Origin: a virus
Taxonomy: Duplodnaviria; Heunggongvirae; Uroviricota; Caudoviricetes
Virus record (IMG/VR): IMGVR_UViG_2585427708_000005
Reading direction: 5' to 3' (one strand)
Length of the DNA stretch: 64,000 nucleotides
The notes under the pieces were generated by a model. It did no database searches and was not told where the DNA came from. It was given only the letters and a program-made list of their open reading frames with translations. A program made the position numbers and the translations under genes. Position 1 is the stretch's first letter; each line of letters starts with the position of its first letter. Below are positions 30,772-34,049 of the stretch, in pieces.

Positions 30772-33700
30772 ATACCCAAAACGTCATGAGCTACACCTCG
30801 AGTGTCCCCCTTACAAGACACAGAACGTCTGGCAAAAAGAGGTTCCACTCTGAAGCCACTGTCATGATAAAGCTCTCTGATGTTTGGCGCGCCACTGTTA
30901 GTAATGAGAACCTTTGCACCTCGACGATGAGCATCCGTCAACAGAGACACCAGGCGTTTTTGCTCTTCAAACTTAAAGTCATGACCGGAATAGTTCGTGA
31001 ATCCCTCTGTATTTGGAAGCGGTTCATACGGCGGATCGCAAAAGATGACATCTCCTTCTCCGGCAGCTTCAATCACCGCTGCAAAATCACCGCATACAAA
31101 CTCAGACCGCCCTTCCGCACCGAGGAAGGCTTCCATCTCCTGTAATGGGAAATACGGAGTTTTATACTTCCCATAACCGACATTGAACTCACCGGCCTGG
31201 TTGTAACGCGTCAATCCGTTAAAACAATGTCGGTTCAGGAACAAAAACGCCGCTGCGCGATGTAAATCATCATAGACTTGTTTGTTAAACGCATTCCGTA
31301 CTGCCAGGTATCCTTCCTGTGTGTTGTAGTCCTGGAAGAAACGATGTGCCAGAGTGATAAGTGAATGCGCCTCGCGTTGCAGAGTCTTGTAAAAGTTAAT
31401 CAGGTCAGCATTCACATCATTTAGCAGATTTTCCTGGTATCCGGCATTCATGAAGACAGCTCCGCCACCAACGAAAGGTTCAATCAGGCGCTTCCCTTCT
31501 GGCAAATAGCGAAAGATTTGTTCCAGAACACCAAATTTTCCACCAGCCCATTTGAATATGGACCGTTCGAATTCTGCCGCTGGTTTAACTTTTCGCTCTT
31601 TTGTTTCACTTCCTTCTTTCTGCCGACATACGGCCTTAGTAATCCGATCGCCAATCCAGCGCATTACTGGTATTGCCATACTATTGCCGATCGCTTTGTA
31701 ACGCGGTCCGTCAGCTGCAAGCATCGCGGCCTCTTCTTCGCTTAAATCTGGATAGTGATTGCGAAGGTATGCCAGTTCATCTGAAGAAACTTTTTTACGC
31801 TTTTCCGTCGGGATCAACGTATGCCCCTCAGGAAAACCTTGCAGCCTTTCACATTCGACAGGGGTAAGACGGCGGACAGCTACTTCTGCGTTTCTTACTT
31901 CATAGCAAACAGCTGTTGGATTTTTAGCCATTAGAGATGGTGAAGTATTCTTAGTTGCAGCATGTTGTGTACCGCTCATACGCTCAGGAAAAGCCAATGT
32001 AACAAGATGCTCATGGCTTTCTTGCTCACGTGCCCGCAATGTACCATGCCCTTCTGACCAAAAACCTGCTCCTGTGCTGCTAAAAACGGCAAGGTCAGTG
32101 GCATCTTTAAAATCTCTTGCCTTTACTGTCGATGCGGTTTCATCGTCAATATATTCCCCAAATGCTGCCATCCTGAAAGCGTTTACGGCTTTCGTCGATT
32201 TCATACCGGGTGGCATGTCAGCGTGTAGGCATGGATTTAGGCTTTCGCCACTGATTGCAGCGCCATTTGCAATAATGGCGGAAGCGATTTCCTTCTTTTT
32301 TCGGCTCGGCGCAATATTCCGGCGCACGCCTTCGAACTCAAAAAGTACCGTTGCGGGATCGAGATCTGTTCGAGCACTTGCGACAACAAACACGCGTCGG
32401 CGTCGTTGTGCCACTCCGAAGTATTGGGCATCAAGGATTCTCCAGGCCACTTTTCGCTGCGGTCCATAAATACAACCACACTGCGGCCACTTTGGAACAT
32501 GGCAACCGGTTTTGCCATCCCACCGCCAGAACGCGTTGCTTTTTCCTGATTCAGGTCGATCACCTGGTTCAAATGGCACATCTTCTCCAGCCAATCCGGC
32601 AAGGAAACATCCGAAGGCGTTATCTGCCGATGACAAGACTCCTGGGACATTTTCCCAGACGATAACGGCTGGTTTGAGAAATGACTCAGCCCGTTTGTCG
32701 TCAATTGCATTTGCAAGCTCCACATACTTTAAAGTTAGCGCGCCACGCTCATCATCAAGCCCACCACGTAATCCCGCGATACTGAATGCCTGACAGTTAT
32801 GGACCACCGCACCATTGAGGATATAGGAATGATCACCTTCGACTTCTATGTTGTATACAGTATCTAGGCCTACCGATTTAAACTCTTTGACTGTTCGTAA
32901 AAGCATTCCATGAGCCAATCTTGATTTACGTGACAATTTCTGCGGGCAGATTGTTACCTGATAATAATTCCGTTGATTTACCACGCGATCCTCGATCACT
33001 TTTTTGGGCTCAACTTCAATAAAGCTGACCGAAGAAACATAACCACAAGTCTGTGACAACCCCGCAACGCCCCAAGCAAGCGCAGAACTAACACTATTAA
33101 TTCTAAATCCCGCTTTACCACTTGGTGTCCCATCAGTATCAAGATAGCCTTGTAAAAACACATGACGCAATGGATGCGACATCACCCATGCAGGGATACG
33201 CTTAGCATGGCTTAACTCGCCAAAATGTTCATTAAGCCAATTGGCATAACACGTATCATTCAAGGTTACTTTGATGCTCCCTCGGATTTCGCTTGCCACG
33301 GAAAATATGTTTTCTGGTATGCGGCAATGAAACTTTCTCAATTTCTGGCAATTTATGCCAAAAACAACCGCCTTCTTAGATTTACCTCTCCATCTCCTAA
33401 TATATCCATCGCCAACATAAGCGCCCGCAAGATACATAGCCTGTTCTTCAGACAAGAACCGAGAACAAATATCTGGAAATGCAATATTGAAATTAGTTAG
33501 AGCGCACCATTGATATCCCGGCATATCACATGCTGCTCGCCATTCCGGTTCAGACAACAACTCTCTCTTAAAATATGTGCCATTTTTCCGGGTGTTTTGG
33601 GCTTTCCACCGAACAGCCAGGAAGGGATGGTCATTGGTTGTTCTTATACCTAAAGGCTGCCCAACGGCATTAAGTAACCCCGTATTAGCTATTTTTGAAC

Positions 33701-34049
33701 CAACTCTTTTTACTTGTTGTAACCGCCCGAGATGACTGACTACGTAATCACCAGGGCAAACATTTTCTATTGGTTTATAGCCATTTTTACAAAGAACCAT
33801 ATGCCCCGCGGTAAAACATGGTGTTCCCCCGACGAGCACGTCAGGGGATTCGATTTCCCCAGCCAAGACTTTTTTGGCAAGTTTTTTCATGTCGCCAAGG
33901 TTGGCAACATGGGGCCAGCGGAGCGCAAGAACGGCCGATGGAAAAGGCTCGATTTCAGCAAACCACGCCGGACGCATACCCAACGGTTCCCAGGCAATAC
34001 TCGCGGCTTCAATTCCACTGCAAACAGATCCATAGCACAGCTCTTTCAC
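30762..34049 (-). CDS. dmt: Bifunctional DNA methyltransferase: N-terminal C5-cytosine MTase (intein-interrupted) fused to C-terminal Dam-like N6-adenine MTase
   Basis: 1095 aa. C5 motifs GSVCSGIEA (I), [12 protein letters not shown] (IV, split by the intein), VWENVPG (VI), QRRRRVF (VIII), GNSMAIPV (X); Dam motifs KWAGGK and DPPY. Confidence 0.9.
32796..33818 (-). mobile_element. Intein (341 aa) with LAGLIDADG homing-endonuclease domain, inserted between Pro and the catalytic Cys of the C5-MTase PCQ motif
   Basis: Starts [20 protein letters not shown] (block A), TNDH (block B), [10 protein letters not shown] and [10 protein letters not shown] (LAGLIDADG motifs), ends VVHN followed by extein Cys; removing it leaves 754 aa with intact GGTPCQAFS. 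Confidence 0.88.

Follow-up and report, generated by a model that had tools for sequence, protein, structure and literature searches.

Inteins have been described before in DNA methylases of phages. The mycobacteriophage DNA methylase inteins DNMT-1 and DNMT-2 reside in enzymes of the N6/N4 type (Kelley et al. 2016, PMC5050341), and an actinophage methylase carries an intein together with other insertions (Gosselin et al. 2023, PMC9957025). The intein host proteins of actinophages also include C-5 methylases; the preprint passages that name this host protein do so without an insertion site (bioRxiv 10.1101/2025.01.02.630785). For bacteriophage P1 the methyltransferase gene dmt is recorded with 2265 nucleotides (nt), corresponding to 754 amino acids (aa), in the uhr-hrdC-dmt operon with the promoter Pdmt and the C1 operator Odmt (AF234172). 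The annotation of this record describes a bifunctional methyltransferase with N6-adenine activity on GATC and only "perhaps" C5-cytosine activity. Here we analyzed a dmt gene of P1 type in a stretch of 64,000 nt from the tailed-virus record IMGVR_UViG_2585427708_000005 of IMG/VR; this whole stretch is called the window from now on. We consider it highly probable that a canonical class-1 intein with a double-LAGLIDADG homing endonuclease is inserted in this gene of a P1-like phage or plasmid prophage, directly before the catalytic cysteine of the C5-cytosine methyltransferase (C5-MTase), and that it would splice and home.

The dmt precursor gene was taken from the program-made list of open reading frames (ORFs) at 30762..34049 on the minus strand, on which all dmt features given below are located. 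Translation of the plus strand over the same interval yielded stops only. The precursor has 1095 aa and 121.7 kDa and consists of N-extein, intein and C-extein. The intein of 341 aa and 38.3 kDa occupies residues 78–418 (32796..33818) and is composed of a class-1 HINT domain which is split by a LAGLIDADG homing endonuclease domain. Its first residues are CFTAGHMVL and its last are NGAVVHN; DVLVGGTP stands directly before it and CQAFSIAG directly after it, with Cys419 as the +1 residue of the C-extein. A four-way protein alignment revealed a single clean gap of 341 residues in P1 Dmt, located between P77 and C78. Without the insert the ORF encodes 754 aa, the same length as P1 Dmt, and the exteins are about 98% identical to P1 Dmt (AF234172, AAQ14041) across all 754 residues. 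At the DNA level the window dmt has the same sequence as that of Escherichia phage vB_EcoM-Ro157c2YLVW (100% identity) and differs little from that of phage RCS47 (99.1%); in the reference sequences of P1 and P7 the match is confined to the regions outside the insert, where the identity to P1 dmt is 98%. An original prediction, made from the sequence of the window alone, had placed a 341-aa element within motif IV, exactly between Pro and catalytic Cys; the coordinates, length and flanking residues that it gave proved to be exact to the base. Its further statement that removal of the element leaves a Dcm-Dam fusion of the size of P1 Dmt agrees with the 754 aa encoded by AF234172, and the alignment with P1 Dmt which it had proposed as a check displays the clean 341-aa insertion.

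The canonical intein blocks, the C-terminal VVHN followed by Cys and the two LAGLIDADG motifs which had been predicted were all found. Block A (CFTAGHMVL, 33792..33818) provides the Cys1 nucleophile. Block B (TTNDHPF, 33621..33641) contains the TxxH motif with T61 and H64, and blocks F and G (32796..32858) include the block F Asp (D329) and end with His340-Asn341. The first LAGLIDADG motif (LAGAYVGDG, 33399..33437) carries the catalytic Asp137 and the second (LQGYLDTDG, 33126..33161) the catalytic Asp229. Two profiles scored above their cutoffs, namely LAGLIDADG_3 (PF14528) with 29.9 bits (cutoff 22.5) over residues 298–361 of the precursor and TIGR01443 (intein_Cterm) with 28.8 bits (cutoff 15.6). 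An AlphaFold2 model of the insert, built on 13 homologues, reached a predicted local distance difference test score (pLDDT) of 92 and a predicted template modeling score (pTM) of 0.89. When this model was compared with the PDB using Foldseek, the best matches were all intein homing endonucleases, including PI-SceI (E 1.3e-17) and TliVMA (template modeling (TM) score 0.63). Further matches were PI-PfuI, PhoVMA and PI-PkoII, then I-DmoI, I-SceI, I-OnuI and Prp8 mini-inteins. A sequence search of the PDB returned the C-terminus of the Spl DnaX mini-intein (E 0.0015) and PI-PkoII (E 0.024). The G + C content is 42.7% for the intein, 48.5% for the C-extein and 54.5% for the N-extein. Its sequence and its predicted fold identify the insert as a true class-1 intein that contains a LAGLIDADG endonuclease with two motifs.

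Relatives of this intein were searched for in several collections. A word-indexed protein search yielded proteins 29–52% identical, all located in PF00145 proteins at GGxP/C...N/CQ (slashes mark the intein boundaries). A scan of IMG/VR gave 172 viral contigs. Among the best 80 of these, 75 carry the intein at P/CQ of a C5-MTase, with the CQxxS motif intact in 73 and the C-extein broken in 2. When 1.84 billion cluster representatives (50%-identity clusters) were searched exhaustively with HMMER, 186 clusters were returned at E ≤1e-30; among the best 148, at least 107 lie at the PCQ site, or about 120 when mis-starts of the regular expression are allowed for. In 54 unique inteins at this site (26–100% identity) C1, T61, H64, D229, D329, H340, N341 and the glycines of the LAGLIDADG motifs (G132, G138, G224 and G230) are invariant, and D137 is kept in 53 of the 54. 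As read from the aligned residues, purifying selection has acted over the long term on the residues for splicing as well as on those for endonuclease activity. Among cultured phages, an intein occupies this site in Mannheimia phage 587AP2 (48% identity), in Propionibacterium phage B22 (30%) and in the E. coli jumbo phages A4, ph0011 and UE-S1 (27%). The genomic contexts of the relatives, among those examined, were prophage- or phage-like. For inteins of phages, the catalytic PCQ loop of C5-methyltransferases represents a major insertion site with a broad phylogenetic range. The original prediction had called inteins in DNA methyltransferases rare. This view has to be corrected, since they are documented in N6/N4 and C-5 methylases of actinophages and many occupy the same PCQ site.

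Some relatives depart from this pattern. A mini-intein without the LAGLIDADG domain was observed at GGTP/C...HN/CQDLS in a phage-like contig of 61 kb; it would represent the endonuclease-loss stage of the homing cycle. In a Mannheimia haemolytica prophage (6001..8321 of the record) an intein with 47% identity sits at the PC site of a 439-aa ORF which ends with CQSDKGG. The C-extein is broken right after CQ, and the remainder of the methylase forms a separate ORF of 177 aa that is followed by an HNH_3 endonuclease ORF. This host gene seems to be degraded, and a second invasion may have taken place. Close relatives were also seen in other exteins, at EHTF/C../CGHFHQ and HPP/C../CTRLCNSGVRWL, and the "modification methylase" of Pseudomonas phage Lana contains a relative at FSPD/C../CTHFSVAKGG. 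Going by these sequences, the intein family has also moved into a few other target sites.

The host protein contains two methyltransferase domains. The N-extein (aa 1–77, 33819..34049) comprises the C5-MTase motif I region up to GGTP of motif IV and is colinear with aa 1–77 of P1 Dmt. The +1 Cys and the remainder of motif IV (CQAFSIAG) are encoded at 32772..32795. The rest of the C5-MTase domain follows in the C-extein (31650..32771) with motifs VI (WENVPG), VIII (QRRRRVF), IX and X (GNSMAIPV). It includes a variable target-recognition region (~31875..32303) in which alleles with exteins of 754 aa and 672 aa differ. The Dam methyltransferase domain (N6-adenine, D12 class) is located wholly in the C-extein (30852..31550) and was recognized by PF02086 (E 2e-56) and TIGR00571 (248.8 bits, cutoff 114.85); its motifs DPPY and FVGGGAV are present. 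On the precursor PF00145 matched the C5-MTase domain in pieces with 102.5 bits, and TIGR00675 scored 95.1 bits, slightly below its cutoff of 100.65. Motif IV is broken in the gene and in the precursor and becomes whole again only after conceptual splicing. The conceptually spliced motif aligns with the PCQ loop of M.HaeIII (GGPPCQSWS) and M.HhaI (AGFPCQAFSISG). In M.HhaI Cys81 of this loop is the nucleophile. Consequently, the +1 Cys would serve both as splice nucleophile and as catalytic Cys of the methyltransferase. Motifs I, IV, VI, VIII, IX and X are intact across both exteins, motif IV after conceptual splicing.

Upstream of uhr-hrdC-dmt the promoter Pdmt and the C1 repressor operator Odmt were located at 35271..35316 (minus). 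The operator and both promoter hexamers are the same as those annotated for P1, and the synteny uhr-hrdC-dmt-tRNA is common to the window and P1. Overlapping or antisense ORFs at 33732..34391 (plus), 33225..33500 (plus), 32237..32725 (minus) and 32074..32469 (plus) gave no Pfam match and were taken as spurious. In the P1 reference Dmt, residue 74 in motif IV is Trp (TGG, VWGTPCQ); the equivalent codon of the window is located at 33828..33830. All other sampled alleles, 7 with and 6 without the intein, encode Gly74 (GGG) at this position. W74 of reference P1 may be a defect in the C5-MTase catalytic loop and could account for a C5 activity that was never shown.

These features suggest the following course of events. 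Transcription of dmt within uhr-hrdC-dmt would start from the C1-repressed Pdmt. The 121.7-kDa precursor with its split motif IV would be unable to methylate cytosine. If the established class-1 intein pathway is taken as the model, Cys78 (Cys1 of the intein) would undergo an N-S acyl shift and the N-extein would be passed by trans-thioesterification to Cys419. Cyclization of Asn418 would then release the intein, and an S-N shift would join Pro77 to Cys419, restoring GGTPCQAFS in an 83.4-kDa Dmt. When two P1-like genomes share a cell, the free 38.3-kDa intein would cut the intein-less dmt at CCT/TGTCAG, and repair from the intein-bearing copy would spread the intein by homing. The original prediction had made methylation dependent on splicing. 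This is to be expected for the C5-cytosine activity and does not extend to the Dam activity, which is probably independent of splicing since its domain is separate and lies entirely in the C-extein.

The distribution of the intein was determined in phages, plasmids and complete genomes. Among sequenced phages, three distinct ones contain intein DNA with at least 99% identity; they account for five records, two being RefSeq copies, and include OP279344. The PLSDB plasmids that carry it number 129 and come from E. coli, Salmonella and Shigella. A 200-nt probe for the spliced junction matched 491 P1-like plasmids, of which 363 have an uninterrupted junction, so that about 26% of the dmt alleles carry the intein. 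Among complete E. coli genomes 152 of 5,426 (2.8%) contain it, with 148 copies on plasmids and 5 on chromosomes, and all 153 copies align across at least 80% of the 1023-nt query. The exact protein of the window occurs on 723 contigs under the sole name "Dam family site-specific DNA-(adenine-N6)-methyltransferase". In the records inspected the intein-containing gene is called a DNA methyltransferase only, mostly "Dam family methyltransferase".

Two individual records deserve mention. OP279344 is described by its source paper as the genome of a laboratory P1vir stock (PMC10250240). At 1501..4542 of OP279344.1 the intein lies in a dmt whose target-recognition region is of the short, 672-aa type, and the upstream 1.5 kb differs from reference P1 by about 1.5%. 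Thus, the P1vir stocks used in laboratories and the reference P1 sequence are not isogenic. In NZ_CP027223.1 (35242..36263) the intein aligned over 1022 nt instead of 1023 with 99.9% identity, which reflects either a frameshift or a sequencing error; this copy is the sole hint of a damaged intein that we noticed.

Mobility and selection were approached by comparing alleles. Six intein copies (from the window, two phages and three plasmids) all form open 1023-nt ORFs, and the ratio of nonsynonymous to synonymous substitution rates (dN/dS) among them is 0.14–0.47. Each of the two target-recognition types (exteins of 754 aa and 672 aa) occurs with and without the intein. This four-gamete pattern requires recombination or repeated homing. 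The Pro codon at position −1 is CCA in 7 of 7 intein-bearing and CCT in 7 of 7 intein-less alleles. The intein-less junction reads GTCGGGGGAACACCT/TGTCAGGCATTC in the pKBN type, GGGGGTACGCCT in a second variant and TGGGGTACGCCT in the P1 reference. The intein-bearing alleles of E. albertii, E. fergusonii and p1919D3 contain four extra synonymous changes within 16 nt upstream of the junction; they read CTGGTGGGAGGGACACCA there and the others CTCGTCGGGGGAACACCT, and the changes are present in no intein-less allele sampled. The simplest reading of this patch would be a co-conversion tract from the invasion by a foreign donor, partly eroded in the lineage of the window. A precise scar of intein loss, i.e. 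an uninterrupted allele with CCA at −1, was not found in identical form among 332 full-length matches, the best of which reached 98.8%; an allele with CCA and some other mismatch could still exist. We had considered the difference between CCA and CCT as proof of endonuclease resistance, but this is unjustified since co-conversion explains it equally well. The 231-nt N-extein (33819..34049) diverges by up to 9.5% among intein-bearing alleles, compared to at most 1.5% for the intein, 1.9% for the C-extein and 2.3% for the upstream hrdC. Apparently, a hypervariable patch lies just 5' of the insertion.

Several points weigh against a splicing and homing intein in dmt. The Hint and LAGLIDADG profile searches named as a check in the original prediction succeeded only in part. 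LAGLIDADG_3 and TIGR01443 exceeded their cutoffs; Hint_2 reached 28.1 bits (E 3e-6) against a curated cutoff of 28.4 and Intein_splicing 17.7 bits (E below 0.01) against 35.8. Pro at −1 blocks the first splicing step in some characterized inteins, for example Sce VMA; a literature search on this Pro yielded no useful data. The whole family keeps this Pro and was therefore taken to be adapted to it, although its splicing kinetics could be unusual. About 74% of the P1-like plasmid alleles are still intein-less. The dN/dS values are based on at most 15 differences per pair and have low power, so that more weight was given to the residue conservation across the family with 26–100% identity, and the association of CCA and CCT with intein presence comes from 14 phylogenetically non-independent sequences. 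Finally, the alleles give no clear sign of a recent sweep, the intein diversity being like that of hrdC and the C-extein.

One alternative is an intein that still splices but whose endonuclease is inactive or without a target, and which persists by vertical descent and ordinary recombination. In line with this, intein diversity among hosts (0.2–1.5%) is no lower than that of the flanking backbone genes (0.1–2.3%), three quarters of the alleles are uninvaded, and the mixture of recognition types could come from homologous recombination between P1-like plasmids. However, the catalytic Asp residues and motif glycines are kept in the window copy and in 53–54 of 54 relatives down to 26% identity, none of the 153 E. 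coli copies is truncated or deleted for the endonuclease, and a co-conversion-like tract adjoins the junction. We regard an inactive endonuclease as an unlikely alternative to active homing. At a comparable level of doubt, and as a tentative extension of active homing, the endonuclease might act as a gene drive or weapon among incompatible P1-like phage-plasmids by cutting and converting the dmt of an intein-less rival, resident or co-infecting, during lytic growth. CCA and CCT would then mark obligatory co-conversion or a resistant target, and/or slow or conditional splicing at Pro −1 would delay cytosine methylation relative to Dam methylation.

The intein could also be a conditional switch, for instance a redox switch via Cys1, Cys10 and the +1 Cys, which licenses C5 methylation in lytic growth under certain conditions only. 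Such a role is compatible with a splicing and homing intein. The catalytic loop is abolished until splicing, two of the 11 cysteines of the intein (C1 and C10) are close to the junction, and dmt is under C1 control. Nevertheless, selfish inteins generally insert at catalytic residues and no regulation is needed to account for the site. We regard a switch as rather improbable.

Still less probable is an intein that is dead for splicing. In this case the C5-MTase half would effectively be a pseudogene and the 1095-aa protein would serve as a Dam methylase only. Pro at −1, which is unfavourable in some inteins, the Mannheimia relative with its C-extein broken right after the intein, and the "perhaps" of the P1 record for the C5 activity would fit this explanation. 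Furthermore, among the activities of Dmt a functional requirement is described for Dam alone; P1 needs GATC methylation at pac, where it is reported to matter for packaging (PMC12707154). Against this stand the splicing residues, which are all intact and invariant in the family, the intact C5-MTase motifs in both exteins and a dN/dS below 1.

That the insert is no intein at all, but an ordinary accessory domain, a bacterial intein-like (BIL) domain or a free-standing endonuclease inserted in frame and kept in the mature protein, is almost certainly wrong and effectively refuted by the P1 Dmt alignment, TIGR01443, the model, Foldseek and residue conservation. The two Pfam splicing-domain models below cutoff and a weak N-terminal match to the BIL domain 2lwy (E 0.18) are outweighed by His-Asn followed by the +1 Cys, the TIGR01443 score above cutoff, structural matches over the full length to genuine intein endonucleases and the splitting of an invariant catalytic dipeptide. 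An RNA element or intron was rejected as well, because the dmt region gave no Rfam match and the insert is an open in-frame ORF.

Outside of dmt some further features of the window were recorded. A tRNA-Tyr(GTA) gene at 29923..30009 (minus) is located between tRNA-Asn (30015..30089) and tRNA-Thr (29843..29918). Reference P1, RCS47 and OP279344 contain the Asn and Thr tRNAs only at this place, and Ro157c2YLVW also has the Tyr gene. Another tRNA with a CAT anticodon lies at 27822..27897. Two separate matches to C4 antisense RNA were found at 102..291 (minus) and 52795..53000 (minus). The former adjoins a match to the Hfq-binding small RNA isrK (214..291) and the latter comes with the c4-a1b1 target element (52948..53000). 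Going by these matches, the window seems to contain two antisense modules of the immunity type.

Phage P1 is a classic model and the standard tool for transduction in E. coli, an organism usually treated as intein-free. An apparently intact intein in a quarter of the dmt alleles of P1-like plasmids, in 2.8% of the complete E. coli genomes and in one P1vir stock is accessible to P1 crosses, to lysogens and to the genetics of E. coli, so that the homing of an intein in a phage-plasmid, its co-conversion and its fitness cost could be measured. In addition, a route is opened to asking whether the long-uncertain C5 activity of Dmt is real. The mechanism is conventional, that of a textbook selfish element, and the conceptual gain is accordingly modest.

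Literature searches for an intein of P1, Dmt or Punavirus retrieved nothing relevant; in two candidate papers inteins occur in the reference lists only. Thus, for the family of phage P1 as well as for E. coli the intein of the window appears to be undescribed and unannotated; its mechanism is conventional, and phage methylase inteins as such have already been described. PI-SceI (Sce VMA1), TliVMA, PhoVMA, PI-PfuI and PI-PkoII share its architecture of HINT domain and double-LAGLIDADG endonuclease (Foldseek E 1e-17 to 1e-9, TM score 0.52–0.63). They differ by an identity of only 11–17%, by their exteins (V-ATPase, ribonucleotide reductase and DNA polymerase) and by a length of 360–540 aa in contrast to 341 aa. 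The methylase inteins of mycobacteriophages and actinophages are homologous including the endonuclease (about 27% identity, tblastn E ~1e-14). They also reside in phage orphan methylases and show the same patchy presence and absence among alleles as the window family. However, their exteins are of the N6/N4 type and the insertion site is another one, for example MHV/C...VVKN/CPLQFD in Tootsieroll. The C-5 methylase inteins of actinophages, as far as the preprint passages describe them, resemble the window in combining a class-1 intein and a LAGLIDADG endonuclease with a phage C5-MTase. For gp50 of Propionibacterium phage B22 (GGSP/C...VVHN/CQDLS, 30% identity) even the insertion point at PCQ is shared. 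The actinophages are unrelated to the P1-like phage-plasmids of Enterobacteriaceae, in which the extein is a C5-Dam fusion. P1 Dmt itself has the same operon, Pdmt, C1 operator and downstream tRNA genes as the window, and differs from it by the missing intein and by W74 instead of G74.

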